From a virus (taxonomy: Duplodnaviria > Caudoviricetes): DNA of 64,000 nucleotides. Positions 1-63,077 of this stretch are shown here, one piece after another; position 1 is the stretch's first letter, and each line of letters starts with the position of its first letter. The notes below the pieces were generated by a model. The model saw only the letters and a program-made list of their open reading frames with translations, was not told the DNA's origin and did not search any database. A program made the position numbers and the translations under genes. The stretch covers positions 6,495-70,494 of IMG/VR virus record IMGVR_UViG_2974720863_000001. One strand, given 5' to 3'.

Positions 1-152
1 TAAAAGAAAGTATTGTTCAGATGATTGCAGAAAGTCAAACTGAACTTAGACCCGTTACAGGTAAGAAGGTTAAGGCTGTGTCTGAACCAGTATATAACTT
101 TACCACAAGTACCCATACCTATTGCTTGGCTGATGATGTGGTAGTACACAAC
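1..152 (+). mobile_element. Intein C-terminal segment (splice junction His-Asn|Cys at 147-155)
   Basis: Codons CAC AAC TGT at 147-155, preceded by VYNFTTSTHTYCLADDVVV. Confidence 0.8.
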
Positions 153-299
153 TGTGATACCATCTCTATGCTGACTGTAATGAATGCTTGGATTCCAAGT
201 AAGAGCTCAGGTATGGAGAAGGTGGAAGGTAGTGACTTATGGGAAGATTCTCATTTCTCTGATGATGAAGGCAGTGGGTACAATTCATATGTAGTGTAA
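1..299 (+). CDS. terL: Terminase large subunit, C-terminal fragment (N4 gp68-like), including the C-terminal end of an intein; 5' part lies outside the window
   Basis: Frame is open upstream of the ATG at 21. PVYNFTT..HTY..VVVHN|C matches an intein block F/G end. It is followed by DTISML..W.PS, typical of N4-like terminase C-termini. The next gene is gp67-like. Confidence 0.8.
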   Translation, partial: KESIVQMIAESQTELRPVTGKKVKAVSEPVYNFTTSTHTYCLADDVVVHNCDTISMLTVMNAWIPSKSSGMEKVEGSDLWEDSHFSDDEGSGYNSYVV

Positions 300-331
300 G
301 ATATACTGAGGTTTACTAAGGAGCCTCAGTA

Positions 332-1042
332 ATGCAAATATCTGAAATATTTAATCAACTCGCTTATGGTGAGCTAAAGCAACACGGAATTGGTGGGCAA
401 GGAGATGGGATTCAACCTGAGAGTTATCCCGAACTCGTTGCCCATCTTAATTTCTCACTTCTTAATATCTACACTCGATTTCCTGTACTGGAGAAAGAGT
501 TAATCCTCAACCCATTACTCAACAAGACGCTGTATAAACTAGACCCTTCTAATGCCTTTAGTTCAGGTAATGAAGACTGGTTCATTGAAGACTCGATAGA
601 GTGTCCTTTCCTAGGGGACATCCTTCGCCTTAATGCAGTGTACAAAGAAGACGGTACGGAATTGATGTTTAATGATGAACATGCGGATGAGACGATATAC
701 ACTCCCTCATACAATATGGTTCAAATCCCATTGAGCATTACAGGCCCTCTTTACTTCATCTATCGAGGTAAACCTGAAAGGGTAGTAGCACCAGCAGATG
801 AAAGTGAGATAGATGATTTTCTGAACCAAGAAGTTACTATTCCTGATGTGTTAACGGAAGCATTGTTTGCCTATATAGAGTATCGTGTCTGTAAGGGTAT
901 TGGGGGAGAGCTTGGCCTAGCTCAAGCGAGTGTTGCGAAGCAACAGTACGAGCTGAGCTGTGTGGAAGTAGAGTCCCGTAACCTACTGAATACCTCAGCA
1001 CACGCCACAAGCATTAAACCAGAAAAAGGAGGATGGGTGTAA
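332..1042 (+). CDS. Head-tail adaptor / virion structural protein (N4 gp67-like)
   Basis: 236 aa directly after terminase; N-terminal LAYGEL motif and synteny with N4-like phages. Confidence 0.7.
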   Translation: MQISEIFNQLAYGELKQHGIGGQGDGIQPESYPELVAHLNFSLLNIYTRFPVLEKELILNPLLNKTLYKLDPSNAFSSGNEDWFIEDSIECPFLGDILRLNAVYKEDGTELMFNDEHADETIYTPSYNMVQIPLSITGPLYFIYRGKPERVVAPADESEIDDFLNQEVTIPDVLTEALFAYIEYRVCKGIGGELGLAQASVAKQQYELSCVEVESRNLLNTSAHATSIKPEKGGWV

Positions 1043-2268
1043 CTATGCGTATACCATCAAACGAAAGCACTGGAAGTACGAACCAATACAAGAGTGATAT
1101 CTCTAAAGTAGCAGATAACATTTCTCAAGTAGTGGACGTATCTAACAACATGGGGAACGTTCTTACCGTGGATGCTAATGAAGCAGACATCAAGACCGTT
1201 TCTACTAACATGCCTCAAGTTCTCTCTGTGGCATTAATCGACCAAGCAATCAAAACCTTGGCCAGTGATTTAAGCAACATTGATGCTGTGGCTGCTGAGC
1301 TAGGTAGTGTAGGTAATGTTAGTAATAACATGGCTACTATTCTACTCATCCACCAACGTATGGCTGACCTATTGAACATTACTGGTTCATTGGACAACAT
1401 TGATGCGGTAGCACTCAATGAGGCCAACATTAACTCAGTACAGGAACACATTCCTGAGATTACCACTGTGGTATCTCACATGGAGAGTATTGCTTATATT
1501 CATGAAAATGAAGCTGAGCTTGCACAAGTATTTGCTAACCTAACTGATATTGTATTAGTTGGTTCAGATATTGATTCAGTGAAGGTAGTAGCAGATAACA
1601 TCGATGCGGTGAAAGATGCCTCTACAGTAGCGGGCGATTTAGATGCACATCTGGTTCAGATGAAAGCTATTGAATCCAACGTTACTTCTCTAGAGCAACA
1701 ATCTGAAGACCACGCTACTGATGCCTTTAATAGCGCCACTGAAGCGGAAGCTAACAAAGATATTACAGTAATTGAAGCAACTAAGTCACAAGATGCTCGA
1801 CTGGCCTCTGAGAGCGCACAGGGAGCCTCTGAGATAGCATCAGGTGTTTCTCAAGCCAATGCCACTAAGACTGGCCAAGATGTGGTTCTAGCAGAAGCTG
1901 CAGCCACTCGTGCAGAACAGACAGAACAGACTGTAGTCACTCAAGGCGATGTTCAAATCAACCGTGTGAAAACGGAAGGTGATGCTCAAGTCTCTCGGGT
2001 AATAACTACTGGTTCAGAAGCTCTGGATGATATTGTTGTTCAAGTAGGCTATGCCAATACCGCAGCAAATACATCTGCCCTTAAGGCTACAGAAGCTTCT
2101 AATAGTGCTACAGCTTCTGGTGTGAAAGCTGACGAATCTGCTCAATATGCTCTTGATTCGCAAGCAAGTGCTGAGCTCTCAGCAGGGTATGCACCTTCAG
2201 CTATTAAATTAGCAACAGACTTAATTAGAACCCAAGAAATCATTGCGACACATCATCCGTTATCTTAG
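1033..2268 (+). CDS. Tail appendage / fibre-stem protein with coiled-coil repeats (N4 gp66 position)
   Basis: Heptad-like NIDAVA/DIKTV repeats, Ala-rich coiled coil, located after the adaptor gene. Confidence 0.6.
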   Translation: MGVTMRIPSNESTGSTNQYKSDISKVADNISQVVDVSNNMGNVLTVDANEADIKTVSTNMPQVLSVALIDQAIKTLASDLSNIDAVAAELGSVGNVSNNMATILLIHQRMADLLNITGSLDNIDAVALNEANINSVQEHIPEITTVVSHMESIAYIHENEAELAQVFANLTDIVLVGSDIDSVKVVADNIDAVKDASTVAGDLDAHLVQMKAIESNVTSLEQQSEDHATDAFNSATEAEANKDITVIEATKSQDARLASESAQGASEIASGVSQANATKTGQDVVLAEAAATRAEQTEQTVVTQGDVQINRVKTEGDAQVSRVITTGSEALDDIVVQVGYANTAANTSALKATEASNSATASGVKADESAQYALDSQASAELSAGYAPSAIKLATDLIRTQEIIATHHPLS

Positions 2269-2279
2269 GAGATAAATAC

Positions 2280-4943: not shown

Positions 4944-4969
4944 TAAAAGGATCGCCGTTTACAAAGTCG

Positions 4970-5657: not shown

Positions 5658-6328
5658 TGGCTACAGTTTATTTAGATATTCCTAGAAAATCTCTAGGGCA
5701 GTTACAAGTAATAAGATCGACAGATGCAGGGGAAACATGGGCAACTGTTACAGGCACGTTGGACAGCGTTAAGAATCAATTAGCAGTAGATGCGGAAGAC
5801 ACAGATATTGTAATGCTATCGAGCACAGCATTCGCCAAGCAAACCACAGAGTCTGTTAATAGCCCTGTATTGCATGGTGGAGCAGGCTTGGGGGGCGTGT
5901 ATTCTACTTCATTCCATGAACATGGATATGGTGCTTGTTTGCAGGAATCTCTAGTAGGGAAAGTCCCTACAGGGAATATTGCTTTAGCTTTCTGGGAAAA
6001 TATGTTGACAGGTTTCAAAATATACCCCGATTGGCGTATGCAGGGGTACTCCTCAGTGGCCCCTACACACACGCCTATTCAACTGGCGGGAGTCTCTTCA
6101 CCTGCTGTTAAGTCACTAAGTTACCAAGTGGCTAACAATAACCAAGCATCTATGAACTTCGCTTTCAATGAGTTGGTTTGGGATACGGATGTTGGTGATT
6201 GGGGTGATGATTCCAAAGTTTATATTGCTGATGGTGTAACTACAGGTACAGACTTAAACGGCAATACTCGTTTAATCGGTACACATACTCTTGCACTACC
6301 TTATGGTTGGGTGCGTAACACAATTTAA
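5657..6328 (+). CDS. Tail fibre C-terminal domain as a separate ORF (probably the distal half of 2280..4943)
   Basis: TAATG overlap with the HNH stop; beta-rich; ends ..GTHTLALPYGW, recalled as a typical ending of these fibres. Confidence 0.5.
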   Translation: MATVYLDIPRKSLGQLQVIRSTDAGETWATVTGTLDSVKNQLAVDAEDTDIVMLSSTAFAKQTTESVNSPVLHGGAGLGGVYSTSFHEHGYGACLQESLVGKVPTGNIALAFWENMLTGFKIYPDWRMQGYSSVAPTHTPIQLAGVSSPAVKSLSYQVANNNQASMNFAFNELVWDTDVGDWGDDSKVYIADGVTTGTDLNGNTRLIGTHTLALPYGWVRNTI

Positions 6329-7209
6329 TGGAGATTGGGGTGGTAACACCCCTCTATAAAAATATGTTTAAAGAAACACAAGGTTACGTGAAAGACTTGC
6401 CTGAAGTAATGCAACCTTTCTACCTAGACGAATTACGTTCTGAGCCTTTGCTTGATGACAATGGTGAGCAGGTACTGCAGGAAGAGGAATATGAATACTT
6501 AGATGAGAATGGAGACACTCAAACTGGTGTTCGTATGGTTCCTGTTTTCCATGATGTTAACTACGTAGTAGAGAAACCTCGCTATGATCTGAAGTCTTGG
6601 GACTATGTAGAAAAGGCTAAGAACTACGACGCTAAGATGTATGGTATCCACAAAGCCTGTGAAGCTGAGCAATGGGCTTACCATGATGAATACGTTGAGT
6701 GGTATTTCAGACCTGAACCAAAACGTGCTCAAGATGAGAATGGTCAGTTCATCGGTGATGATCCAGAGACCCCTGAGAATGAGGCATGGGAGAATGGTTT
6801 CACGCCTGAGATGTATGCTGCACAACCTGAACCAATTAATACCTCTACCGAACCTGAACCAATTAATACCTCTACCGAACCTGAACCAATTATTGAAGAA
6901 CTTCATCAAGAGTTAGCTAAACAGACTCGTGACGAGGCAGTAAAGGAGAACATTTCAATGTTTGGCGGAGAATGGCAGGTACGGGATAAGGATATGATTA
7001 ATGTCCAAGATGCCATTGATGAAGCTGAGTTCTTAGGGTTACCTCCTGAAGCTACTGAACCATGGATTCTTGCGGATAACTCTATCCGTCCTACGACTGC
7101 CCTAGAGCTAAAGCAAATCAAGTCTGCTCGTGCTCAACATAAGTCATCCGTATTTGCTGCCTATGCCATATGGAGGGAGGGGGATAAGCTCACTCCATTC
7201 ATTATATGA
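6328..7209 (+). CDS. Tail fibre assembly / DUF4376-like protein
   Basis: C-terminal WQVRDKD...WILADNS motif; follows the fibre genes; acidic. Confidence 0.5.
   Translation: MEIGVVTPLYKNMFKETQGYVKDLPEVMQPFYLDELRSEPLLDDNGEQVLQEEEYEYLDENGDTQTGVRMVPVFHDVNYVVEKPRYDLKSWDYVEKAKNYDAKMYGIHKACEAEQWAYHDEYVEWYFRPEPKRAQDENGQFIGDDPETPENEAWENGFTPEMYAAQPEPINTSTEPEPINTSTEPEPIIEELHQELAKQTRDEAVKENISMFGGEWQVRDKDMINVQDAIDEAEFLGLPPEATEPWILADNSIRPTTALELKQIKSARAQHKSSVFAAYAIWREGDKLTPFII
6824..6891 (+). repeat. In-frame 27-bp tandem repeat, about 2.5 copies (PEPINTSTE)
   Basis: AACCTGAACCAATTAATACCTCTACCG at 6824-6850 and 6851-6877, partial copy at 6878-6891. Confidence 0.95.
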
Positions 7210-13859: not shown

Positions 13860-14081
13860 GTGCACATTAACCATAAGGAAAGTAGGGGCATTAAGGTGGA
13901 TAATGAGACAATTTTACTCACTGTTATGAGGGATATGATGTGGACAAGGGAAGTACTTGCAAACAGGTTAGGGATAACCAGAAGAACCCTAACTCGTTAT
14001 TTACGAGGGAATACTCCCGATAGAATAGCTTTTGCAGTACAATGGATTTACTTCTTAGAGATGGGTAAGGTATTAATATGA
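13860..14081 (+). CDS. Small XRE-like helix-turn-helix protein
   Basis: WTREVLANRLGITRRTLTRYLRG HTH signature. Confidence 0.7.
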   Translation: MHINHKESRGIKVDNETILLTVMRDMMWTREVLANRLGITRRTLTRYLRGNTPDRIAFAVQWIYFLEMGKVLI

Positions 14082-14377
14082 GCATTACAGTAGAAGGCAT
14101 TCTTCCAGACCCTATGGGATTGCCGATGACTAGTACCCCAATTAGAGTAGTTACTATAAATAGTGAGCACACTCCATTTGGTTCAGAAGCAACAAAAGTT
14201 ACAGACAAAACAACAGGAGCCTATTCTTTTATCTTACAAGAAGGGCAATACTTAATTGATATCAAACAAGATGATGAATTCACTGAAGGCACGGAAGTGT
14301 TGATTGATGGTACCCTTACTGGTTCAATTGACCTAGCAACATTGATTGCCAATCATAAGGTACAGGAGCAGGAATAA
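14078..14377 (+). CDS. Stand-alone tail-fibre N-terminal-like domain, paralogous to the N-terminus of 9828..12686
   Basis: GILPDP, G.Y.F.L.EG.YL..I...DEF.E shared with 9828..12686. Confidence 0.7.
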   Translation: MSITVEGILPDPMGLPMTSTPIRVVTINSEHTPFGSEATKVTDKTTGAYSFILQEGQYLIDIKQDDEFTEGTEVLIDGTLTGSIDLATLIANHKVQEQE

Positions 14378-25325: not shown

Positions 25326-28300
25326 ATGGCAGTAAAAAACACACTTGGGATGTTTGAGGCAGTAGGACTTAACCCTACTACTGTTTCTAAAGCTGACTCT
25401 GTGGCTAAAGCAGCACAGAGCAAGCAAGCTAAATTCTCATCTCAAGAGTTAAGTCAAAGCTTTGACCAGTTCAAAGCCTTGTACCCTAATTCCTCTTTTG
25501 AAGAACGTCAGAACTTCTTGGTTCAGCAAAACGCTTTCCAACAAAGTCAGAATAACTCTTTTCTAGAGGATGTAGGAACTGACCTAGGTATTGCTTTCGG
25601 TGACCGACTCCCCCAAACAGGGGGAGCACTTCTTGGTCTCGCAGGTGATGCAATTGGTTCAGATACACTCTCACGAGTTGGTTGGGATTATGCCAAGCAA
25701 CAACAGCAAGAGATGCAAGCATCCCAAGAAACTTACTCCCCTGACCTAGCTTCAGCTAAAGCCAATATCTTAGCTCGAGCGGAAGCTCGTAAAGCTGAAG
25801 CGATGAGTGATGGTGATATGTCTGCCATGGACTCCCTGAATGAGTTCTTCGGTACAGTGGGCGATTACATAGTTAATCCTAGAGCAGCAGCTTCAGAGGC
25901 TGTACAGAGCTCAGAATCACTACTGACTATGGTAGCGTCTGGTGGTGTAGCAGGTGCTGTAGCTAAAGGTGCAGTGAAATCAGCGGCTAAGAAAAAGCTA
26001 GGCGATACCCTTAAGAAGAAGTATGTCCAAGAAGCTATAGAAGCTAAAGCAAACCAAGCAGCTCTAACTGCATCAAGTTCAGTAGGTACGGCTTACACAG
26101 GTGCTTCTGAGGGGGCTAACAACGCATTGCAAACCCGTGATGCTTTGAATGAAATCCCTGAAGAAACTCTACGTGAATCTCCAGACTTCCAAGAATACTT
26201 GAAAGAGAACGATGGTGACTTTGATAAAGCGAAGGATGAGTTCGTTAAGTCTGGTACTGCCGACACATTTCTTATCTCTGGTTCAGTGGCTGCCCTAGTA
26301 GGTAAAGCTTCTGGTGCATCAGATACCTTTGCCCAATCCCTAGTGAAGCAAGGTAAGAAATCGGTAGTGAAGGATGCAGTCAAAGCCGGTGTTACTGAGA
26401 CAGTAGAAGAAACAATTCAATCTGGTGCAGGTCAGCTTGTTAGCAACATCCAAGTAAAAGAGGGTGATGCTTCGCAGGACATCCTAGAAGACGTAGGTAC
26501 AAATGCAGGTGCCGGTGCAGTAGCAGGTGGTCTATCTGGTGCAGTGACCTCAGGTGCTGTAGGAGGCCTTCAAAAGGCAGGTGAGACAATCACTAAGGGA
26601 GCAGAGAAAGTTGTACAACAAAAGGCGATTAAAGAACAACAAGCTAAGGCAAAGGAGGAGGATGAGACGGTAGCTGAGTATGATAAGGCTAAAGAATCTC
26701 CTGAGTCTGTATTTGAAGAATTCGAGAATGCTTCAGACGAAGACCTAGTTAAGAATATGCCTAAGGTTGTAACCTCACTGGTTGCTCTACGTGAGAAGCA
26801 GAACTCAGGTGATTTAACTCCTGAAGAATCTGCAGAACTTGGAACCAAGATAGATGCCCTAAAAGCACGTGCTCAAAAGGCAAACGCTGAGGCAATCAAG
26901 AAGACGGCTGAGACTACTGCTAAAGTAGTAGCTGAACCAGAAAAGGCTAATTCAGCGGATACCCAAGGTGCTTTCGTTAATACCGTTGCTACAGGCAATG
27001 CAGATAATGCACAGGTGTTAAAAGGTTCAAAGCATCTTACTACGAACCAGAAGAAACTATTGGATGCTATTAGCAAACCAGAGTCTCCTATTGGTAAGCG
27101 CTTGAAGTCTGCAGAAGAAGTTCATGATGAAGTAGTAGGCGGCGGTGAAGGTTTCACTGGTTTAATGGAATATGTGGATGCCCTGAGTACTGTGGTTACT
27201 GAGAAAGACCCACAACGTGCTTCACGTCTACTGCGTCAACTTACTGGATTTGGTGCCTCACAGCAGAAGAAGATTCAGACAGGTAAGTTCGCTGATGGGA
27301 ATAAGATTCCTGATGCAACTATGGCCTTAATCAAAGATGAAGCGAATGCTATTAAACTGGTTCAAGATGCTTACACCGATACGTTAGAAAAGAGCCTACC
27401 TGAGTTTAAAGACTTCCAACAGTCTGCAACCTCTAAGGTTAAGCAGAAGCTGAATATTGATACCAATACTGCTCCTGATGTAGAAAGCCAAGTAACGCTT
27501 CCTAGAAAGCAACGTAAGGCGATTGTACAAGAAGTCCGTGCAACTCTATTCAATCTTAAAGAAAGCCCTGAGGGGATGGAACAGGTACGCTTCAAGCTAC
27601 GTAAAGCAGGTGTTACCAAGTCTAAGATTGATGCAGTGGAAGAAGCATTCAAAACAGTTGAAGCGATTGAAGGTAAGAAGAACCTTACCCCTGAAGTCCG
27701 TAAAGAACTGAATGATGCAAATACCCTGATTGATGATACCTTCGTTGAGTTAACCTCTGCCTTAGGTGCTGATGGTCTGCGTGAGACTCTGGATAAGTTC
27801 GGAGTTAAAGAGAACGTAGAGAGTGCTTACTCTGTTAAAGAGAATGAGCTAGATGCCTCTAAAGTAGAAGCTACTGAAGGCCATATCCCTGAGCAACCTT
27901 CACAGAAGGAGCTTAGTAGTGAAGCACAGTTCAAGAAGTACAATGAACTGGTTCAGTCTATTAAAGATTATGTTAGCCAGACTCCTGATGCTTTGGATGA
28001 TGCTGACATTAATGCTCAATACAATACCGTGGTTGATACAGAACTGAATGCATTCTCTGAAGGCACTCAAGGCACGTATAACAACGCTGTAGAGTTATTC
28101 AATACACTGGGAGTCACTAATGCTCAAGTCACCACAGCGAATTCTGAGACGAAAGCAGTAACTACTACGCCATCTAACCGTACTTATCAGAATGTGATTG
28201 AAAGGTCTCCTTTCCTGTCTAAGTCATTCCGATTCGTTAAGCGTCAGATTGGCCTACTCCATACTGAGAATTCACTGGTTCAGAAGTTGTCTAATGAAAA

Positions 28301-39502: not shown

Positions 39503-41695
39503 TTAGATACGTCCTTCACTAGCAGCTTTCCCCCATAGTGATTTGATGACTGTAGATTTAAGCTCATCCTTACTTAAAGGATTCTTCAACTTATCGTTGA
39601 ACTTAATCACCGCATCCTCTACGTCAGCAGGAGCAAGCCCTGAATCATAAAGCATGAATGAGAAACGAGCCAATGTATTGTTACGGTTACCTTCTCCAAT
39701 GCTACGAGCGAACCAAGATTCAATCTTGTCCATATCTCCAAGGTCTTGAACCTCTTTGACATACTTCTCGTTCTTAGCAGTCTTAGGAATAAACTGAGTA
39801 GGGTCTAGTACAGTTCCGTGTTGGTACTCGTGTGAACCATTAAAAGCTTCCCATTTACGAGCACGTTGACCGGTTACATCATCTACCTTGAATGGAAGCC
39901 AATCAAAGATATTACCCATGAACTCTTTGAACTCTTCATCATTCATCTTCAAGTGATACTTGATAGGTAATACGACACGGAAGCGGTCACAGACAACACC
40001 GTTCTTATCTATCTGGTGACTCTTAGTGGTGTAGAACAAGGCTTCATAGTCCTTCAACAGCAGTTGGGCTGTCTCTAGGCTTACACCATCATCTACATCC
40101 AATACCACCATATTGAACTCAGGAATCGCATTCTCTTTACAGCGGTGCTTTTCCATGAAGTTATGGTTACACCAGTGCACACCTTTGTGAGTGACCAAGC
40201 GATGGAAGTTATCCCATGCGCGTACCTTAATCAACCCTTCTGAATCAGAAGGCATGTAGTGGTAGGCCACATCATTCGATGCAGAGAAGATTAACTTATC
40301 AAGGTCTGTTTCAGTAAGAGTCTCGCCTTTAAGAATCTCAAAGCCATCATCTAGGTACTTCTTAATAACAATGTTATTTCGATGTGCCCAAGCTCGTGCC
40401 AGAGATACCATGTCATCTTTCGCAGACTTTGAACCAGTAAAGAACGGTAAGTCTTCTACCAAATCAGCATAGGTACATTCCTTGTCTACAGCAGCGATGT
40501 ATTTAGCTAGACGAACATAGTTCTTGTCTTGGCTCAGGATTTGCTCACAGGCCACACCAGAGTCTTCTACTAACTTAATAGCGGAGTACATCTGTTCTTC
40601 AGTGACTTCAGGAGTCTGGTCCACAAATGCATAAGCTCCTGCTAACTTCATAGCTTTGAAATATCGATGCTGGAGCTCAGCCTTACGGATAGGTTCAAAG
40701 TCAGAAATCTTAGATGCTTTCTGTTCACAGTTGAGTTGATACTGAAGGTTAATCAAAGCGACTGCTTTAGGTACCTCAATTATCTTATCGTGGTTCACAG
40801 CATCCGCTAGGGACTTAAAGTATGTGTGTAGTTGGCCAATGTCCTTGTCATTGCTTGTGTGCGTTAGAAGCTCATACAGGTCTTCTGCGTTGATTTCAGT
40901 AGCCGTGGTTTTGTTGCCCCAACCATACAAGAAACGTCTGCCGTAGCCTGTCTCCAGTAAGGAACGGAACTCCCTTTCTTCCATGCCACCATTGAATAAC
41001 TTAGAAGGAGTACCGAATACCATCATGTTACTTGGTACTGGGTCATGCCTTTCTTCGCTACGTTTGTTCTCAGTAGAGTTCTTGGTAATCTTTTGCTTAA
41101 TAAGACCTAAGTCATACGCTTCAAGGCTTACTGCAAAAAGCTCAGCATTGGAAAGTAGATTGGTGCCTATCTCATCAATGATTAGGTTCAATGAACCAGA
41201 TTTAGCTATCTGCGCTTTAGTACGAATCTGCTTATAAGCAGGGGCAGTACCACTGTCGAATGAGTAAGGCATAGCTCCCAGTGACTTGAACTCTGTATTG
41301 AGTGCTTCCGTCTCTTCAGCTTCATCAGTGGCATTACGAATAGCTTTCTTACGAGCTTCGTTGGCAATGCTTTGTTCAGCGATGAAAGGGAAAGTCTCTT
41401 TACGGTAAGTCTCAGAGAAACCATTAACTAACTCACGCTCCATGATGTTCATGGAGAAGCCTTTACCGGCACCTGAAGACATCAAACCACATACAAACAT
41501 ATTGATAGGGAGTTTGCCTCGGTGAGGGGTATTCACGTGTGCTCGCACGGACGAAGCCATTTGAGCCAGATAAAACGCAATAATACCTCGAAAGTAAGTA
41601 TCACTTTCTAGGTTTTGTGTTTTGGTTCGGAGGATAGCCAATATCTTTTCCTGAGTAGGGTGATACTGCATATCCTCATAAGGACGGAGTTCCAT
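39503..41695 (-). CDS. DNA primase (N4 gp43-like) with a C-terminal PriCT domain
   Basis: SGAGKG, FDSGT.PA.KQ, LDVDDG, YTTKSH, GEGNRNNTL. Confidence 0.85.
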   Translation of the reverse strand: MELRPYEDMQYHPTQEKILAILRTKTQNLESDTYFRGIIAFYLAQMASSVRAHVNTPHRGKLPINMFVCGLMSSGAGKGFSMNIMERELVNGFSETYRKETFPFIAEQSIANEARKKAIRNATDEAEETEALNTEFKSLGAMPYSFDSGTAPAYKQIRTKAQIAKSGSLNLIIDEIGTNLLSNAELFAVSLEAYDLGLIKQKITKNSTENKRSEERHDPVPSNMMVFGTPSKLFNGGMEEREFRSLLETGYGRRFLYGWGNKTTATEINAEDLYELLTHTSNDKDIGQLHTYFKSLADAVNHDKIIEVPKAVALINLQYQLNCEQKASKISDFEPIRKAELQHRYFKAMKLAGAYAFVDQTPEVTEEQMYSAIKLVEDSGVACEQILSQDKNYVRLAKYIAAVDKECTYADLVEDLPFFTGSKSAKDDMVSLARAWAHRNNIVIKKYLDDGFEILKGETLTETDLDKLIFSASNDVAYHYMPSDSEGLIKVRAWDNFHRLVTHKGVHWCNHNFMEKHRCKENAIPEFNMVVLDVDDGVSLETAQLLLKDYEALFYTTKSHQIDKNGVVCDRFRVVLPIKYHLKMNDEEFKEFMGNIFDWLPFKVDDVTGQRARKWEAFNGSHEYQHGTVLDPTQFIPKTAKNEKYVKEVQDLGDMDKIESWFARSIGEGNRNNTLARFSFMLYDSGLAPADVEDAVIKFNDKLKNPLSKDELKSTVIKSLWGKAASEGRI

Positions 41696-51185: not shown

Positions 51186-51431
51186 TTACTTTCTAGCTTG
51201 AATAATCTTGACTAGTTGAGAGACGGGAGCATTCATAGGTGTTACCTCTAAGGCTTCATCTACAGACTTCTTCCATTTTCTCAACTGAACCAATTCATAC
51301 TCATCTATGTACCGGTAAACCATACGTTCTGATAAACCCATACCTTTAGCGATATCAGCTATCTTGGTTCCCTGCCTATATTGAACATAGGCATCTCTCT
51401 TTTTAAGCAGAGTTTCTTCTCTGGTAGCCAT
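51186..51431 (-). CDS. HTH DNA-binding protein
   Basis: G.KIADIAKGMGLSERMVYRYI. Confidence 0.65.
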   Translation of the reverse strand: MATREETLLKKRDAYVQYRQGTKIADIAKGMGLSERMVYRYIDEYELVQLRKWKKSVDEALEVTPMNAPVSQLVKIIQARK

Positions 51432-51452
51432 ATCAATTTCCTCTACGGTTAA

Positions 51453-51475
51453 CCAAAAAAGGAGCCGAAGGCTCC
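51453..51475 (-). promoter_or_regulatory. Candidate N4-type vRNAP hairpin promoter (may also act as a terminator)
   Basis: The + (template) strand reads CC-AAAAAA-GGAGCC-GAA-GGCTCC. Confidence 0.45.
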
Positions 51476-51820
51476 TCTTTGAATAGGTACAAGGCATCTC
51501 ACCTTGATTGACACATCATGTTTGGTTCCAGTGTTCGGAACCCTTCTGGGCTGTGTAGCACCATCAGGACACTTTTATATGTAATGATAGACAACGATTT
51601 GTCTACTGGGCATACGAGATACACTCAGTCCCTTGAATCAAGGCATTATTCTTTGGTTCAAGAAAGTATATCTCGATATACCTCCTGTTCTTATAGGAAC
51701 GAATCGACCATCTGTTAATCAATTAATTACTCAGGAGGTATATCTTGTAAGTACCCTCTCCTCCAATGGAAACCACTCACAAAAGGAAAGAAAATGGAAA
51801 GGATACTTACAGGATAAAAA

Positions 51821-52839: not shown

Positions 52840-53085
52840 TTATACATAGTACTCAAGAGCTTCCATATCCAACGCATGAAGGAACATTGCATTTATTTGT
52901 GGGGTAGGGTCTTTAAGCTTAATCCACGTCATCAGAAGCTTTCTGATAGATGCATGGGTTACTTTCTTGCGTAACTTCTTGCAGGTGGTTTGCACCTTCT
53001 TGATGTCCCCATCATTGAACCAATAGCTAAGCCATACAGTCCTCATGACAGAGGCCATCTCATAATTAAACTCATATTCATTCAT
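52840..53085 (-). CDS. Hypothetical protein
   Basis: 81 aa. Confidence 0.5.
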   Translation of the reverse strand: MNEYEFNYEMASVMRTVWLSYWFNDGDIKKVQTTCKKLRKKVTHASIRKLLMTWIKLKDPTPQINAMFLHALDMEALEYYV

Positions 53086-53244
53086 TGATTCAAAACTCGT
53101 ATTTAACTAAGGACGTAAGTGCCGCACCGGTGAACATCATCACAGAATGTAGTGAACTGTGCATCGTCAGGTCGTTATGTAGTGTTTGGATGACGAATCA
53201 CGTGTCATCCACAAAGGCCACTCTTTGAATGACCTTTAAGGATG

Positions 53245-53529
53245 TTATTTGTGCTTGTCGAGCATAGTATTAGCTAAACGGAAGCAATTGATACCACCCG
53301 CAGCTACTGCATCAAGGGCTACAAGAGACAGTGTTTCCAACAACTCCGCCTTATCCGCTTCTAGCTGTGCTATTCGCTCAACCATTGAGTCGTGGCTGTT
53401 GATTGCCTCGAAAACATACGCTGGATAAAGAACATCAGCACTAAACGCGATTTCTGAGATGCTTCTAATCTCACACACATCAATATGTTGACTTACTGGT
53501 AAATCAAACACATCACTCATTTTCATCAC
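53245..53529 (-). CDS. Hypothetical protein
   Basis: 94 aa with RBS. Confidence 0.55.
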   Translation of the reverse strand: MMKMSDVFDLPVSQHIDVCEIRSISEIAFSADVLYPAYVFEAINSHDSMVERIAQLEADKAELLETLSLVALDAVAAGGINCFRLANTMLDKHK

Positions 53530-53719
53530 ATCACTCCTTCAATATTTTTGTCATTACCAAAATCCTCTTGGTATTTACCGGTAGTTTCACCAGTGATTGG
53601 GTCAATGTATAGGAACTTACGTACCGTATGATGGTGACGTTTCTGCTTATCAATCTTCTTTCTTGGTTTCTTAGATTTAGGCACTAGATTCTAGTCTCTC
53701 AAATTCAGTAGCAATGTGT

Positions 53720-54124
53720 TTATTTAACTAAATCCGCTGCGTATTCCATGAGCCAGATTTTAGGTGCTATCCATATCTGAATGGATGTCATTATGTTATC
53801 TACCATGAACAAGCTGAAAAATGCAGGGATGATTAAAAAAAGTGCGATAGGGGATGCTTCCCCAAGCTCATAGGTATCTCTATGGCTGTCATAATCCCAC
53901 ACCAATGTTGACTTACCCGCTTTAGGTTTCTTAACTAACCGGTAGCATCCGTAAAGTATAAGTGCCCCAGTTAAGGCAGTAATTACCCCTTGTACCGCAT
54001 ACCAAAGTAGCAGTTGATGAATGACATCAGGTAACTCTGCTTGCATGAAATCCACACTCGCATCAATACCGCTGATTGCTCGGTTCAGTATTTCTGCTAC
54101 CGCTGTTTGTAGTTGTTCGTTCAT
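53720..54124 (-). CDS. Membrane protein, two transmembrane helices
   Basis: Hydrophobic helices; WIAPKIWL.EYAA end. Confidence 0.6.
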   Translation of the reverse strand: MNEQLQTAVAEILNRAISGIDASVDFMQAELPDVIHQLLLWYAVQGVITALTGALILYGCYRLVKKPKAGKSTLVWDYDSHRDTYELGEASPIALFLIIPAFFSLFMVDNIMTSIQIWIAPKIWLMEYAADLVK

Positions 54125-54125
54125 A

Positions 54126-54332
54126 TTATTCCACCTCTGTTTCCTTGGCTTTGATGTGATAGTGTTCGGTTTCTACCTTATCCGCTCCATAGCTATGAGC
54201 CATAAGGTCAAATGCCATTGCTACACCGCCAACTAAATCCTCAGGTGAATACTCACCCTCATCAGCGAAAACCAAGAAGTCCTCTTTGATAGAGTTAAGA
54301 ATATGGTCCATTAACTGCTGTTGTTTGTTCAT
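54126..54332 (-). CDS. Hypothetical protein
   Basis: 68 aa, coupled to the upstream gene. Confidence 0.5.
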   Translation of the reverse strand: MNKQQQLMDHILNSIKEDFLVFADEGEYSPEDLVGGVAMAFDLMAHSYGADKVETEHYHIKAKETEVE

Positions 54333-54703
54333 CTCACTTCCTCTTTTTCAATGTCCCAGTTTTCGCAGTCTTCGAAAAATGTGCAACCTTTGCAACCTTC
54401 ACAACCTTCACAGAAGTTGCAGTCAGCGCAACCTTCGCAGTTTTCGCAGAATGAGCAATCTTCACAGTCTTTGCAATCCCAGCAGACTTTACATTCTTTA
54501 CATTCTTTACACCCTTTACAGTCCCAGCAATCAGCGCAGTCTTTGCAGTCTTCGCAGAATGAGCAGTTCCAGCAGCCTTTGTTTGTTTTGTTTGTCTCTC
54601 CAAAATCAGGGTTTTCCTTAGCAAACTCAGGGCTAACACCATTAACTGACTTGTCTTCTCTTTTTAGGAATTCTGCGTGGCTTTTGAATATTTGTGTTTT
54701 CAT
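54329..54703 (-). CDS. Cys-x-x repeat protein
   Basis: 22 consecutive CxX tripeptides; ATGA coupling at both ends. Confidence 0.75.
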   Translation of the reverse strand: MKTQIFKSHAEFLKREDKSVNGVSPEFAKENPDFGETNKTNKGCWNCSFCEDCKDCADCWDCKGCKECKECKVCWDCKDCEDCSFCENCEGCADCNFCEGCEGCKGCTFFEDCENWDIEKEEVR

Positions 54704-55233
54704 TTCACCTCTTCCTTTTCAATATCCCAGTAGTCGCTACATGAGTCAGTAAACTTCGCATCAACCACTTCCTTGGCTTTCTCGTAGGTAGAGAATACCC
54801 CAATCACTTGATTACCTTCGTAATGTACACCGAAGGTTAAAACGTATACGTAGGTGTTATCTGATACGTCTTCCTGTACTAGTGATTCTTTTAGTTTTAC
54901 TCTGCTTGGTTCCTGATATAGCGAGGGCAAGTGAGGTCGCCAAAAGTATTCACCTTCTTCCTCCCAGTCGATTTCACCGCAGGGAGATATCTCAGTGTAT
55001 TTCTGTAGCGCATGATAATAGGTAATCTCAACCATAATGTCATCAGGGTAGGGTTGTTTATAGTCCCCATCTCGCCATGCAAAACTATGCACACTCAAGT
55101 CACCATGACAATTTTGGTTTAGTACCGTAACATCAATACCATCGCCTACCTTGTACCCACCAAAGTCACCGACTAGCTCATCTCCCTTCATAAAGACAAT
55201 GCCTAGGTCTCTCGCTTGCTTAACGGTAATCAT
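54700..55233 (-). CDS. Hypothetical two-domain protein
   Basis: 177 aa; C-terminal YVLT.G..YEG..VIGVFST.EKA module. Confidence 0.55.
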   Translation of the reverse strand: MITVKQARDLGIVFMKGDELVGDFGGYKVGDGIDVTVLNQNCHGDLSVHSFAWRDGDYKQPYPDDIMVEITYYHALQKYTEISPCGEIDWEEEGEYFWRPHLPSLYQEPSRVKLKESLVQEDVSDNTYVYVLTFGVHYEGNQVIGVFSTYEKAKEVVDAKFTDSCSDYWDIEKEEVK

Positions 55234-55405
55234 CTCTCAACATCCTTCATCTTTAAGAAGCAAATAGCTATCGCTCGGTACGGGTTTTTGTCTTTAACTA
55301 GAATCGTGTTGAACTCTTCCGCTTGGTGTTGAAGTGTAATGGCTTTATACCCCTCGTACATTACTTTATTAATTTTGTCCCAAACTCTAAATTTAATTTC
55401 TCTAC

Positions 55406-55855
55406 TCATACCTCTACCTCGATTTCGATGAGTTGATCGCCTTTATTCATGGCGTCAGGCTTTTCTGTGTAGGCGCGTGCAAAGTCTCCTTTTGAAGTAA
55501 ACCTAATCCAGCGCTTCTCTTTCTTTGGTTTGATTCGGAGATTTATCTCGGCATCCATAAAGAGGTGGTCAGCAACCCAAGGGTAATCCTCTAGTGGCTC
55601 CATTTCCCCGTAGTTACCACTACCATTGGGCAGGAACTCAAACTCAGCATCACCACCATTCAGCCAGCGCAAACATTGTCCGTCCTCATTGTGTTGAGGT
55701 AGGCAGAGGAAGTACTTAACGTTGTCGTAAAACACCGCACCCCTCTCATCGGGGCTAACCAAGTACCATGCCCCTAAGCTTTTGTAAAATTTAACTAAAT
55801 CCCTATTCTCAGCCTTGGCGATAATCATATCTGCGTGTACGTGTCTATTGCTCAT
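55406..55855 (-). CDS. Hypothetical protein
   Basis: HVHADMI.AKAEN...YFLCLP.H motif. Confidence 0.55.
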   Translation of the reverse strand: MSNRHVHADMIIAKAENRDLVKFYKSLGAWYLVSPDERGAVFYDNVKYFLCLPQHNEDGQCLRWLNGGDAEFEFLPNGSGNYGEMEPLEDYPWVADHLFMDAEINLRIKPKKEKRWIRFTSKGDFARAYTEKPDAMNKGDQLIEIEVEV

Positions 55856-56208
55856 AACTTTAATATTCCTTTCTCTATTGCACGTCTGATGCGGTGCCTC
55901 CACATCTTGCGTTCATCAAAGGTGTCCACATCACACATGGCCAAAGCTGTCTCTTCAATAGAGTTAGTTTGGTTCAATAGTATCTGTGCTAATTCAAGGT
56001 GCTCATCCCACTTATAGGTGTGACGTATAGCATCCTCAAAGGTGCCTTTTACTGGTTCAACATTAAGGTACACATGGCCATTATAAATAATAAAACCTAC
56101 CTTGAGCCAAGCCACCATACGTCTGTAGCTGATGCCCACATAGCGAGCTGCAGCAGCCTTATTGCCATTGCATCGTTCAAGCAACTCTAAGTCGGTCATG
56201 ATGTCCAT
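55852..56208 (-). CDS. Putative HTH protein
   Basis: GNKAAAARYVGISYRRMVAW. Confidence 0.55.
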   Translation of the reverse strand: MDIMTDLELLERCNGNKAAAARYVGISYRRMVAWLKVGFIIYNGHVYLNVEPVKGTFEDAIRHTYKWDEHLELAQILLNQTNSIEETALAMCDVDTFDERKMWRHRIRRAIEKGILKL

Positions 56209-59823: not shown

Positions 59824-59833
59824 TGGTTACTCC

Positions 59834-59867: not shown

Positions 59868-59873
59868 ACAGGG

Positions 59874-61100
59874 TTAACAGATTTGGTAGTTAGATTGTTG
59901 AATCAACTCAATGATGGCAGGGTCTGTAGGAACATCCCATTCATACTCATCGCCTGTCAACTTCTTAATCACATTCAGGAGCCAAGGGCTCTGATACATT
60001 TCAGCCATAATCTGGTTGTAGTGCATACGCATGTCTTCCACATTCACTGGCGGACACTTGAACTCATCATGTACCGATAACGTCTCAAATGAAGGTAGGG
60101 TCAGTAACCATTCCAGCTTAGCTTTTAACTGGTTCAGGTATTCATCCTTAGCCCCATCTAACGTATCCCAACGTACATTCTCAAGGTTAGCTACAGAGAT
60201 GAAGTTGTTCTCTAGAGCACACTCTTGCAAGCGTAGGAACTCATCATCGTAGTAGTCTGAACCATGTTCCTGATGGTACTCAATCGCTTCCAGAGCACGT
60301 CTCACTTGACCTTCGTCATAGTTGCAACGGTTATCCAGTTCACGTACTACAGTACCATCCCCGCAGTGAGTAACGTTCGCTACCAATGACTTAGTACCTT
60401 CGTCTTTCATTGGAATCAGTGGACGATTCACCTTGTTCATATACGTATACGTATAACCTGATAGAGTCCCCTTAGTCTTCTGGATGCCTTGGCACTCTAA
60501 GTGAGCAACCAGTCCATCCATGGCAGTGAACTCGTGGAATAGTGCCTTTGAGTCCCATGCATTGATGAGTACCTTACGTACCCAATATGCTTCAGGGAAG
60601 GTCTTCTCATACGCTCTCTCGAACTCATCAGATAGTTCTTCACCAAAGACTTGTGTAGGCTTGCTGTCACTACCATAGACATAAGGTACTGTAGCGTTCT
60701 TCACTTCCTTACGCTCTACATCAGAGTCCATGTATTCTTTGATTACAGTGTATCCATCAGGCCTTACACCGGTATCAATAACACCAGTGTTACGCATACC
60801 TGTCTCACAGTGCAACAACACAGACAGCAATGCAGGACCTGAGTTACAAGCATCTAGGCCAATCATATGCCCAGTTGCTACGCCATCTAGGATGTCACGT
60901 ACAGCACAGATAGCCTTAGTGAACAGGGCAGGTGCTTCAGCCTTAGCAATCCATTGGCTCATGTCGTTCTCTTGCTTAATCTCTTCTAGCATTTCACGTC
61001 CAAATGCTAGACGTACAGGGTAAGTTTCTTTGTCTAATCCATACTGTGAAGCCATATCGATTAGGCACCATTGCGCTGGAGAAAAATGTAACATTGTCAT
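59874..61100 (-). CDS. RNA polymerase II subunit 2 (N4 gp16-like, T7-family C-terminal half)
   Basis: IGLDACNSG (motif A), RKEVK.ATVPYVYGS (B), SVHDEF (C). Confidence 0.9.
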   Translation of the reverse strand: MTMLHFSPAQWCLIDMASQYGLDKETYPVRLAFGREMLEEIKQENDMSQWIAKAEAPALFTKAICAVRDILDGVATGHMIGLDACNSGPALLSVLLHCETGMRNTGVIDTGVRPDGYTVIKEYMDSDVERKEVKNATVPYVYGSDSKPTQVFGEELSDEFERAYEKTFPEAYWVRKVLINAWDSKALFHEFTAMDGLVAHLECQGIQKTKGTLSGYTYTYMNKVNRPLIPMKDEGTKSLVANVTHCGDGTVVRELDNRCNYDEGQVRRALEAIEYHQEHGSDYYDDEFLRLQECALENNFISVANLENVRWDTLDGAKDEYLNQLKAKLEWLLTLPSFETLSVHDEFKCPPVNVEDMRMHYNQIMAEMYQSPWLLNVIKKLTGDEYEWDVPTDPAIIELIQQSNYQIC

Positions 61101-61120
61101 AGTGGTTTCCTTTGGTTTGG

Positions 61121-61294
61121 TTAGTATTTTACTGGTCTGCCTCGCACGAGGGACTGATACACAAGCTGTCTTAAGCGCTTGGTACAGCTTCTAGGCCATT
61201 GCCCTCCGTAAGGGAAGGCTTCTTCATCTTCTTGCTTAGGGCATAATTCGTAGTGGTCTTTGGTGTTATTTAGGTAGGTGGTAAGACGGCTCAT
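61121..61294 (-). CDS. 57-aa MSRL protein between the two RNAP genes (not in ORF track)
   Basis: ATGAGCCGTCTT start 9 nt after the RNAP1 stop; MSRLTTYL...PVKY. Confidence 0.55.
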   Translation of the reverse strand: MSRLTTYLNNTKDHYELCPKQEDEEAFPYGGQWPRSCTKRLRQLVYQSLVRGRPVKY

Positions 61295-61303
61295 GAGTAC
61301 CCC

Positions 61304-62266
61304 TTAGAACTCTGGTTCAATTACAATAACTTTAGCGAAGTCCACCATAGCCTTCTGGTAGTCCCTTCCTTGATAATTCAAGTGGTATGCCTCCACATAG
61401 GTACGGCCGCGGTTGTCTCTACGGTGAGCAAAGTAGAACGGAACATCACCAATAGCATGAAGCTTCTCAGCCATATCTGCATGTAGTGCAAGCCATTCAT
61501 TCTTACGTTCTTGTACCTCGTTCTTGGTTTCTGTCTTAGCAGTCTTCTTGTTGTACTTAGGCGTTGCATCGAAGGCACCTAGCTTACCAGCCAGTACCTG
61601 TCCTGCTATCTCCTTATCCAGCTTGAAAGCAACACGGTTTCTCTTATTCAAGTGAGGTAGGCAGATGTCCTTGTCATGGTGCTTACCCCCCATCAATACT
61701 GACTTCTTGAAGGTACGATACCCAATGCTTGAGTTATTTCTCAGGCGCTTCAGTGGCACTACAGACGGCAAGCTTACTGACTGTACATTCAGTGCCTCAA
61801 GCTCTTCTGGTTCAAGCTCTATCAAGCTATGTAGGTAACTGAACTCTTCACCTTTGTGTATCTCCACTTCAATTAGAGGACAGTACTCTATCACTAGGTT
61901 AACTGCCTTGAGTTGTCGTGAGGTCGTAGAGATGCCTGAGAAGCTCCCTATGACACTTCCTACACCTTGTTGTAGGGTAACTTGGTTTCTGCCTACAACC
62001 GTGGTTAGAAGCTTATACATGAGCTCTGAGACATTACATTGACGTAGATGTGAGTACACTTCTTTCAGATCTTCACGAACTTTGACTTCCCCTAACTTGG
62101 TTTGGTACTCAAAGTCATCGAACATATGTGCATGAAGCTCTAGGTTGGTGGCTGCTTCTTGGATGAGGTTATCGAAGTCTCTTAGGAAGACTTTCATTAG
62201 CTCAACTTGGTTGCGTTTACTGTGTTTAAGCTCTAAAGCTATCTGACGTTTAATCAATTCTTTCAT
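61304..62266 (-). CDS. RNA polymerase II subunit 1 (N4 gp15-like)
   Basis: HRRDNRGRTY...YHLNYQG.DYQKA C-terminal motif. Confidence 0.88.
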   Translation of the reverse strand: MKELIKRQIALELKHSKRNQVELMKVFLRDFDNLIQEAATNLELHAHMFDDFEYQTKLGEVKVREDLKEVYSHLRQCNVSELMYKLLTTVVGRNQVTLQQGVGSVIGSFSGISTTSRQLKAVNLVIEYCPLIEVEIHKGEEFSYLHSLIELEPEELEALNVQSVSLPSVVPLKRLRNNSSIGYRTFKKSVLMGGKHHDKDICLPHLNKRNRVAFKLDKEIAGQVLAGKLGAFDATPKYNKKTAKTETKNEVQERKNEWLALHADMAEKLHAIGDVPFYFAHRRDNRGRTYVEAYHLNYQGRDYQKAMVDFAKVIVIEPEF

Positions 62267-62399: not shown

Positions 62400-62588
62400 T
62401 CATCGGTGTGCCCACTCACATAGGTTGTAGAGTGCGAAGGCTGTCACACCCCATAGGCTTGCACCCAATAGGTGTAGTAGTTTGCTTTCAGATTCAAATG
62501 CCATTAGTGCGTGTAGTAGCTCAATCATGTTATTTCTCCTTAGAGGTAAGTGCACAGTAGATGATGACACCAACGTAGATAACTCCAC
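62400..62588 (-). CDS. Small membrane protein (probable start MIELLH)
   Basis: Hydrophobic C-terminal helix. Confidence 0.4.
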   Translation of the reverse strand: MELSTLVSSSTVHLPLRRNNMIELLHALMAFESESKLLHLLGASLWGVTAFALYNLCEWAHR

Positions 62589-62636
62589 CGATGGTTGCGA
62601 ATGCTCCGATTGTTCCTGCGATGACTGCTGCCATGA

Positions 62637-62819
62637 TTATTTCTCTCCTTCAGGGAATAGGATTGGGACCAATACATCCCAATAGGTTTCTCTACTCACA
62701 GAGATAGTGTCTCCTCCAATATGTACATTGAAGTGCCTATCTTTATCGAGTATCCAATCAATACGAGCAGTGTTGATATCAACGCTTGCACCAGTACTTG
62801 TTGCTATAGAAATGAACAT
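62637..62819 (-). CDS. Hypothetical early protein
   Basis: 60 aa, 2 nt after the upstream stop. Confidence 0.5.
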   Translation of the reverse strand: MFISIATSTGASVDINTARIDWILDKDRHFNVHIGGDTISVSRETYWDVLVPILFPEGEK

Positions 62820-62821
62820 GA

Positions 62822-63016
62822 TTAATCCTTCAGTTGGTCTAGTTGTTGGGTTAGGAAGTCGATAAGTTCTTGTACTTCACTTTGGTTCAATTCTGCTTGG
62901 AGATAGTCATCACAATTCTCTATTACTTGTAGCTTTCCATCTTGTGCCCACATAGTGACAACTTCTCTATCTGCATCCGTAGTGATAGTGATTGCATTAG
63001 CTTCTTCAGTTAACAT
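62822..63016 (-). CDS. Small acidic early protein
   Basis: 64 aa, 15 D/E vs 3 K/R; AAGGA RBS. Confidence 0.55.
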   Translation of the reverse strand: MLTEEANAITITTDADREVVTMWAQDGKLQVIENCDDYLQAELNQSEVQELIDFLTQQLDQLKD

Positions 63017-63077
63017 AGTTTATTCCTTCTGGTTCAATTTTGAGGTAATCAAGAGGCACTTACAGTGCCCCTAAATC

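Follow-up and report, generated by a model that had tools for sequence, protein, structure and literature searches.

The window analyzed here, a 64,000-nucleotide stretch of DNA that corresponds to bases 6495–70494 of the 70.5-kb viral record IMGVR_UViG_2974720863_000001 (GC content 43.2%), is 99.3% identical to Vibrio phage 1.245.O, a member of Schitoviridae, Pariacacavirus, with Vibrio breoganii as the host; judging by this similarity, the window comes from an N4-like phage of V. breoganii. [quoted passage not shown] Dispersed over this sequence on both strands, between positions 83 and 63036, are 134 copies of the heptamer TGGTTCA, 82 of which read TGGTTCA and 52 TGAACCA on the + strand, with a mean distance of 473 bp between copies. 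The original prediction, made by reading the sequence, had put the number at about 130, split about 80 to 50 by orientation, and all the positions it quoted are correct. The whole 70.5-kb record contains 146 copies (93 + 53), compared to 23 (11 + 12) for the reversed word.

The heptamer is genuinely enriched, and the signal operates at the level of DNA. In 100 dinucleotide-preserving shuffles, the heptamer occurs 10.6 times on average and at most 16 times, compared to the observed 134, i.e., the enrichment stands, with its size reduced from the initially proposed 15-fold or so to about 12.7-fold. Shuffling of synonymous codons within genes, a conservative null model given that it retains the motif-inflated codon usage and leaves the non-coding copies fixed, yields 34.5 +/- 4.0 copies (maximum 47; z about 25), and permutation of whole codons within genes yields 25.7. 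About 90% of the copies sit within genes of both orientations, and each of the five coding phases that are able to hold the word exceeds the synonymous shuffle 2–8-fold; the enrichment over expectation is highest in non-coding DNA, with 13 copies compared to 0.58 expected. Thus, the occurrence of the word in different codon phases and between genes holds as originally described, and the shuffles, the all-frame enrichment and the non-coding enrichment together rule out a codon or dipeptide artefact. The original prediction had named a codon- and dipeptide-preserving shuffle and the existence of equally enriched heptamers as the results that could overturn it. The enrichment survives the former, and no unrelated heptamer is comparable: the top one, TGAAGAA, reaches a z of 6.6 compared to 21 for the motif, and comparable values are found only for heptamers that overlap the motif.

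All seven positions of the word are needed, as indicated by the counts of its single-mismatch variants, each of which occurs 1–29 times. The flanking preference is weak (consensus W-C/T-TGGTTCA-R, with G avoided at positions -3 to -1). A 27-bp perfect tandem repeat (2.6 copies, + strand, 6824–6892, within the gene 6328–7209) has TGAACCA in each unit and supplies 3 of the 134 copies, the only ones derived by duplication; the other copies have unrelated flanks. A repeat family or a mobile element is accordingly ruled out as the source of the word.

Comparison with related phages indicates that the sites are maintained. In the DNA alignment of the window with Vibrio phage D456 (capsid protein 89.5% identical, aligned DNA 72% identical), 28 of the 56 sites are kept, compared to 9.3% of the flanking 7-mers in the same phase (p 7.5e-15). 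This retention, together with the outcome of the synonymous shuffle (34.5 expected, 134 observed), bears out the original claim of a DNA-level signal under selection beyond codon usage. In codon-guided alignments, the fraction of window sites kept is 37% in D456, compared to 6.3% for the flank control, 27% in PG11 (2.9%), and 12% in the uncultured relative G001 (5.1%), and none is kept in coliphage N4 (0 of 33; control 1.9%) or in Vibrio phage 1.097.O (0 of 48; control 2.4%). The heptamer sites are under purifying selection but turn over with distance. Single sites are shielded in the short term, and what is maintained over long distances is the density of the word, not its position. At window position 34601, within the virion RNA polymerase (vRNAP) gene, TGAACCA is aligned with TGGTTCA in D456, i.e., the word is kept with its orientation flipped, a change that needs three substitutions.

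The signal is family-wide, with one-letter lineage variants, and is found in N4 and LUZ7 among others. The copy numbers given here for the relatives are totals over both strands. D456 carries 181 copies of TGGTTCA, mostly as CTGGTTCAG, compared to 50 in the synonymous shuffle; phage PG11 of V. hangzhouensis, the capsid protein of which is merely 54% identical to that of the window phage, carries 207 copies compared to 56.5 in the same shuffle. Among uncultured relatives, G001 has 59 copies compared to 17 of the reversed word, and G002 has 27 compared to 5, with CTGGTTC(C) also enriched. In N4, the most over-represented 6-, 7- and 8-mers are GAACCA, CTGGTTC and ACTGGTTC, respectively; CTGGTTC occurs 110 times, compared to 36.8 in the synonymous shuffle (z 17) and 10 for the reversed word. 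In LUZ7, a phage of Pseudomonas aeruginosa, the word is TGGTTT/AAACCA, with 157 copies in the whole genome compared to 38.6 under a Markov model (z 19); within a 22-kb stretch of this genome, TGGTTTG occurs 25 times compared to 5.0 in the synonymous shuffle. The TGGTTT type is common to many uncultured N4-like contigs. In phage 1.188.B, which infects V. breoganii, the host species of the window phage, CTTGGTTA occurs 16 times compared to 2.5 under a Markov model, and TGGTTCA is at the background level. Phage 1.097.O, a Dorisvirus, shows no enriched word (19 copies of TGGTTCA, 15.8 in the synonymous shuffle). Across the variants TGGTTC, TGGTTT and TGGTTA, the core TGGTT is constant and the sixth base depends on the lineage. 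Given that the word varies with the phage rather than with the host, its reader is probably phage-encoded.

Two genomes over-represent additional words close to the main one. N4 has 43 copies of CTGGGTC(A)/TGACCCA compared to 11.8 expected (19 compared to 3.7 for the 8-mer) and 31 copies of CTGGCTC compared to 10, which suggests a looser N4 consensus, CTGGNTC. LUZ7 has 169 copies of AAGCCA (TGGCTT) compared to 72 (z 11).

The word is a property of the phage lineage rather than of its hosts. In five Vibrio genomes, which include one isolate from the phage's collection and two that presumably belong to the clade of V. breoganii, the heptamer occurs at 0.2 per kb, the same as the reversed-word control. 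In 26 Vibrionaceae, CTGGTTCA is present at 0.02–0.07 per kb, compared to 0.8 per kb in the window phage; its excess over the control is at most about 3-fold, and most of these genomes show none. In Escherichia coli K-12, CTGGTTC is found at 0.155 per kb, about one tenth of its density in N4 (1.57 per kb). Overall, the density of the word in the Vibrio and E. coli genomes is 10–40 times below that in their own phages. The enteric Chi sequence, GCTGGTGG, which is reported to be active in marine vibrios, has two copies in the window and none in D456. Given that the hosts are not enriched and that true Chi is near-absent, host mimicry, a host Chi and a host uptake sequence are ruled out. A reader encoded by the host, which the original prediction had allowed for, is for the same reason unlikely, all the more so because the core is common to phages of Vibrio, E. 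coli and Pseudomonas and because phages of the same host differ in the word.

A second property of the heptamer is its polarity. It favors the coding strand of the late genes at 1.6–2.4:1, and does so in the early region, which is transcribed in the opposite direction, as well as in the late one. The forward and reverse counts in the late and early regions are, respectively, 47:31 and 35:21 in the window, 67:34 and 49:31 in D456, and 38:23 and 31:18 in N4; with the coding-strand effect factored out, the bias in these three phages is 1.6–1.8:1. Without this correction, the counts stand at 148:59 for PG11 and 42:17 for G001. LUZ7 shares the polarity (102:55, or about 1.95:1 with the coding-strand effect factored out), which is thus consistent in six phages and independent of gene orientation. 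The bias is not compositional, given that the base composition of the window predicts 0.95:1 (a hand calculation from the base counts). No polarity switch was found along the N4 genome, the record of which we take to begin at the left physical end of the phage. The skews of the + strand at four-fold degenerate sites (GC +0.025, TA +0.030) are too weak to be called replication-type skew.

The spacing check proposed in the original prediction turned up no periodicity, only short-range avoidance: in the window, D456, PG11 and N4 pooled, there are 28 gaps shorter than 50 bp compared to 69 expected, and gaps of 100–175 bp are in mild excess. Neighboring copies show no preference in relative orientation and no helical phasing, and head-to-head pairing of the kind seen in Type III restriction was not found. 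Among the gaps shorter than 400 bp, pooled over five phages, 204 of the 465 are divisible by three, which is above chance and is explained by the favored codon phases nnT-GGT-TCA (Gly-Ser) and nnT-GAA-CCA (Glu-Pro). No association of the sites with hairpins is seen (the mean minimum free energy of 87-nucleotide windows is -16.9 at the sites and -16.8 at the controls), nor is lower pairing predicted for the word.

The largest gap between sites, 53016–55970, encloses eight small accessory genes on the - strand (53245–55903) that are free of the motif, with 0 sites compared to about 5.6 expected at 2.1 per kb. No homologues of these genes were detected in D456, PG11, G001, N4 or 1.097.O; even 1.245.O lacks several of them and has a thymidylate synthase gene in this area. 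The block is probably a recent acquisition. More generally, the density of the heptamer is 2.11 per kb in core genes compared to 1.35 per kb in accessory genes. This looks like amelioration, with resident DNA gaining the heptamer and newly acquired DNA lacking it.

Any reader that serves every motif-bearing phage covered here should be among the roughly 20 proteins shared from the window to N4. No gene was found whose presence or absence separates the motif-bearing phages from 1.097.O. The leading candidate appears to be the helicase-primase encoded on the - strand at 39503–41695, a homologue of N4 gp43 ('dns') with LUZ7 gp63 as its counterpart in that phage, in which an MCM-like DUF3987 helicase is joined to a C-terminal primase of the archaeo-eukaryotic primase (AEP) type and a PriCT_1 helical bundle. 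A Pfam search identifies DUF3987 in the N-terminal part and PriCT_1 at residues 663–716 (33.7 bits compared to the cut-off of 21.1); the PHROG assignment is "DNA primase", and residues 512–716 match a primase-polymerase family. In the AF2 model of the C-terminal 301 amino acids (pLDDT 86), modelled residues 35–217 are predicted to adopt the AEP fold (e.g., Z 8.6 with the S-2L PrimPol and Z 6.2 with RepB'), followed by the helical bundle, the best matches of which include the DNA-binding domain of ColE2 Rep (Z 5.9) and PriX (Z 5.1), weak values for bundles. A Foldseek search gives only weak AEP matches, and a sequence search of PDB with gp43 and with a profile of the C-terminal region identifies no meaningful match. 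The N4 dns protein has been described as a superfamily 6 (SF6) helicase with a C-terminal AEP domain and as essential for replication (Kazlauskas et al. 2016, PMC4889955).

The similarity of this protein across the family is in line with a role as the reader. It is the best-conserved protein between the window phage and PG11: the identities are 68% for the primase, 61% for the DNA polymerase, 57% for RNA polymerase (RNAP) II and 54% for the capsid protein, and PG11 has 2.9 sites per kb. In G001, which has 0.86 sites per kb, the primase is 44–46% identical to that of the window phage, the DNA polymerase 45%, RNAP II 34–37% and the capsid protein 79%. On these comparisons, motif strength follows the replication and transcription module, not the virion module. 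In the helicase-primase tree, all TGGTTT-type phages fall in one large clade, and the TGGTTC-type phages form two basal groups, one comprising the window phage, D456, PG11 and G001, and the other N4 and G002. A locus search with the primase alignment detects relatives at 40–47% identity only, and a query with a single primase matched none. An unrelated siphovirus, MW202458, encodes a small AEP-PriCT_1 protein and does not have TGGTT enriched, a case that is uninformative at 30% identity.

The other candidates include the two RNAP II subunits, encoded on the - strand at 59874–61100 and 61304–62266 (59874–62266 together), which are rival candidate readers. The identity of these subunits to those of the window phage, 72% and 65% in D456, 57% and 57% in PG11, 37% and 34% in G001, and 28% and 32% in N4, follows a pattern like that of the primase. 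The gene at 51186–51497 (- strand) encodes a homeodomain-like helix-turn-helix (HTH) protein, with sub-threshold HTH matches in Pfam and homologues in D456 (63%) and PG11 (59%); having no match in N4, G001 and G002, all of which bear the word, it is largely ruled out as the reader. The original prediction had pointed to four HTH or winged-HTH genes, none of which tracks the motif: those at 52419 and 55852 are among the accessory genes without homologues, and the one at 13924–14100 is common to D456 alone. PG11 encodes, at 27990–28622 between the RusA and SSB genes, a nucleotide-modification protein of the Nmad5 family that has no homologue in the window.

In our best explanation, the word is a cis-acting DNA signal that selection keeps dense and that a phage-encoded protein reads. 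The analysis establishes the signal, the selection on it, its phage specificity and polarity, and the domain composition of the candidate reader; the link between the word and the helicase-primase is what we infer. Neither the family-wide spread and the polarity of the signal nor this candidate reader had been part of the original prediction. Our favored reading, put forward tentatively, is that the word is a recognition or priming site, i.e., a site of docking and initiation or of loading, for the helicase-AEP-primase of these phages. Among the shared proteins, gp43 is favored because its domain type is known to read template sequence. In characterized AEP primases, a helical bundle of this kind or an adjoining DNA-binding domain selects the template sequence; the enzymes that read sequence include ORF904 of pRN1 (GTG), ColE2 Rep (the origin) and RepB' (the ssi sites), the latter two of which bind specific origin DNA and begin the primer at a fixed base. 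Under this hypothesis, the helicase would unwind the DNA and the tethered primase would dock at 5'-CTGGTTCA-3' on the displaced strand, where a primer would be begun or the enzyme loaded. With a requirement for 7–10 nucleotides, the density of sites expected by chance would be about one per 16 kb per strand, and selection would raise it, for each strand, to one site per 0.8–1.2 kb, a spacing similar in scale to the length of Okazaki fragments. The excess on one strand, 1.6–2.4:1, would mark the commoner direction of the fork, from the late-gene end to the early-gene end. Host DNA, with roughly a tenth of the site density, would be poorly primed, so that replication would have a built-in preference for phage DNA. 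A stricter version of this hypothesis, under which the helicase-AEP-primase of N4-like phages starts primers or loads exclusively at a word of 7–10 nucleotides, is somewhat doubtful. If true, it would make this enzyme the first replicative primase with long specificity and would amount to self/non-self discrimination at the level of replication, with phage DNA primed about every kilobase and host DNA hardly at all.

Several observations weigh against a helicase-primase site. Phage 1.097.O has a homologous helicase-primase yet no enriched word, and the C-terminal region of this homologue is 47–49% identical to that of the window phage, the highest value among the 23 uncultured relatives compared. 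To our knowledge, the characterized replicative primases read 3–5 nucleotides, and recognition of 7–10 nucleotides is unprecedented for a lagging-strand primase. The pentamers read by the T7 primase are only mildly enriched in T7 (GACCC, z 4.8), with no clear strand bias; T7 is a weak precedent for enriched primase sites. RNAP II, the DNA polymerase and SSB share the similarity pattern of gp43, the clustering of the word types in the helicase-primase tree is expected for any vertically inherited gene, and the match between the bundle and ColE2 Rep (Z 5.9) is within the range of noise for helical bundles. The avoidance between sites is limited to less than about 75 bp and does not extend over hundreds of bp, as strict spacing on the Okazaki scale might predict. 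The variant TGGTTA carries a purine at a position where a pyrimidine would be the better fit for a primer that starts with a purine. Finally, the polarity could come from one-way middle transcription, packaging or ejection instead.

The last point leads to the alternatives. Under one of these, the word is a signal for the single-subunit phage RNAP II, or for its ssDNA-binding cofactor, in genome-wide one-way transcription that aids DNA entry; it might serve for pausing, anti-pausing or re-loading, or mark the places where transcripts become replication primers. The similarity of RNAP II tracks motif strength as well as that of the primase does, a genome-wide directional process fits a strand bias that is independent of gene direction, and polymerases of the T7 type do read short sequence-specific pause signals (e.g., the T7 class II signal). 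Furthermore, the middle transcripts of LUZ7 and LIT1 extend antisense through the late genes (PMC9163698), and entry of the N4 genome requires early and middle transcription (PMC4496689). Nevertheless, 35–40% of the copies are in the opposite orientation, more than 100 pause sites per genome would bring no obvious benefit, and the sites are unassociated with hairpins. The middle promoters do not resemble the word: those of N4 are AT-rich and span -7 to +2, and those of LUZ7 are GC-rich hairpins. In addition, N4 gp2 and RNAP II bound ssDNA without sequence specificity in vitro, and the paper on LUZ7 Drc reports no sequence specificity for this protein. We therefore regard a transcription signal as unlikely.

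The word could also be the binding site of another directional or genome-coating phage protein, such as a terminase or packaging motor, a protein for ejection or condensation, or a small early protein that evolves too quickly to be traced by BLAST. In its favor, the word is dispersed and specific to the phages, and the exclusion between copies below about 50–75 bp would fit the footprint of a protein. The strictly one-way processes of packaging and ejection could yield the polarity; then again, a strictly one-way process is expected to exceed a bias of 1.6–2.4:1. The early genes evolve too fast for their homologues to be traced. On the other side, N4, G001 and G002 lack the sole HTH gene common to the three phages richest in the word, and neighboring sites display neither helical phasing nor pairing by orientation. 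We know of no terminase or ejection protein that needs dispersed sequence words. This possibility, too, has a low probability.

A Chi-like protective or recombination signal appears less probable still. In this case, a nuclease-helicase, either the host RecBCD or a phage enzyme, would be switched off or redirected upon meeting the word from one side, so that the end of the linear genome that is first into the cell is protected. Like Chi, the word is over-represented and polar; by geometric reasoning, its commoner orientation is the one that would be read by an enzyme entering at the early-gene (first-injected) end; CTGGT is common to the word and E. coli Chi, GCTGGTGG; and the phage has its own set of recombination proteins (the exonuclease, the Sak4-like annealase, SSB, RuvC and the Dda-like helicase). 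Against this, the hosts do not enrich the word, true Chi is all but missing from the window and from D456, and the same core is found in phages of hosts that have different recombination enzymes, with two variants of the word in phages of one host species. There is no switch of polarity along N4, and PG11, the phage with the highest density, lacks the Dda-like helicase.

A comparably small chance is left for the word being a self-mark, a site that a phage enzyme modifies or nicks in a sequence-specific manner. A sharp, asymmetric 7-mer resembles the targets of methyltransferases of Type IIG, Type III and the BREX type, genes for nucleotide modification are present in some relatives (the Nmad5-family gene of PG11 among them), and nicked phage genomes are known, namely those of T5 and of the Pseudomonas phages tf and phiKMV. 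However, a mark does not explain the 13-fold enrichment and the conservation, given that phages usually avoid targets of the restriction type. The motif-bearing phages have no conserved methyltransferase or nickase in common, no methyltransferase is present in the annotations of 1.245.O, D456, PG11 and N4, and the Nmad5 gene lacks a homologue in the window.

That the word is a functionless by-product of a bias in mutation, repair or gene conversion, or of codon or dipeptide preference, is very improbable and already largely refuted. In its favor, repair biases such as that of very-short-patch repair do shift oligonucleotide frequencies, and the multiple-of-three gaps show that coding constraints shape the site positions. 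Against it, neither codon shuffling nor synonymous shuffling removes the enrichment in any frame, and non-coding DNA shows it most strongly; the requirement for each of the seven positions is sharp; hosts that have these repair systems in common with the phages lack the enrichment; the bias predicted from base composition is slight and in the opposite direction; and the repair biases known to us are less than 2-fold rather than 13-fold.

Some other words are over-represented as well. Under a maximal-order Markov model, the top tetramers of the window are GATG/CATC (790 compared to 602 expected) and GATA/TATC (660 compared to 494). Second to the main motif in several N4-like genomes comes the word CTAAAG(C)/(G)CTTTAG, with 33 copies compared to 18 in the window and 86 compared to 37 in N4, and is also listed for Alteromonas phage PT15-A5. 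It is enriched in 1.097.O, a phage without the main motif, and in T7 (47 compared to 18). Given that T7 shows it too, CTAAAG probably has its source in coding or translation in general and is not a signal specific to N4-like phages.

A word that is selected, polar and independent of the host, and that differs by one letter from lineage to lineage, implies an unrecognized sequence-specific step in the life cycle of a family with about 470 sequenced members. The candidates for this step are replication priming, helicase loading, transcription-driven entry, packaging and protection, and the word bears on how N4-type phages replicate, in particular on their origin and priming mechanism. It also bears on the engineering and recoding of therapeutic N4-like phages, where erasure of the word may be costly. 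The word variant could be used to assign metagenomic contigs to lineages, and recently acquired genes could be recognized by the missing word. N4 has been studied for 50 years and the transcription map of LUZ7 is complete, yet their top over-represented word (in N4, CTGGTTC is 11 times as frequent as its reversed control) seems to be unreported: in agreement with the original prediction, which knew of no description for N4-like phages, none turned up in a literature search that combined the word with N4 and its relatives, with the sites recognized by primases and with the promoters of LUZ7.

Among the known systems that come closest are primase sites. In the window phage, the replicative helicase is fused to a primase of the AEP type that has a PriCT_1 bundle, and the word is found on both strands with one in excess; the sites of known lagging-strand primases, at 3–5 nucleotides, need no enrichment. 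The sites of T7 gp4 have the core 5'-GTC-3', with TGGTC, GGGTC and GTGTC giving the primers ACCA, ACCC and ACAC, respectively, and TGAACCA, the complement of the word, contains the T7 primer sequence ACCA. ColE2 Rep and RSF1010 RepB' have one or two origin sites, compared to about 140 copies of the word. The stoperators of cluster A mycobacteriophages, which are bound by the L5 gp71 repressor, are likewise many dispersed copies of an asymmetric word. Stoperators are 13 bp long, number about 20–35 and are mostly intergenic and oriented with transcription, whereas about 90% of the 134 sites analyzed here are intragenic, their orientation ignores the direction of the genes, and no repressor-like protein co-occurs with the N4-like word. 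The DNA uptake sequences (DUS of Neisseria and USS of Haemophilus) are likewise genome-wide, at about one per kb in both orientations; these are 9–12-mers that serve as a 'self' tag for a DNA-handling machine and reside on the bacterial chromosome, whereas the Vibrio hosts have no excess of the word. There is also a likeness to Chi (GCTGGTGG, recognized by E. coli RecBCD) and to the FtsK orienting polar sequences (KOPS), which are also short, asymmetric and over-represented, occur in genes in all frames and have a polarity tied to a directional process on DNA. Compared to these, the N4-like word shows its excess in viral rather than host DNA, is about 10 times denser (one per 0.5 kb), has a weaker polarity and a reader that is probably phage-encoded, and differs between phage lineages that share a host. 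Thus, over-represented polar words are in themselves a known kind, as exemplified by Chi, KOPS and the uptake sequences, but what appears to be new is a word specific to viruses, conserved throughout a phage family and differing between lineages by one letter.

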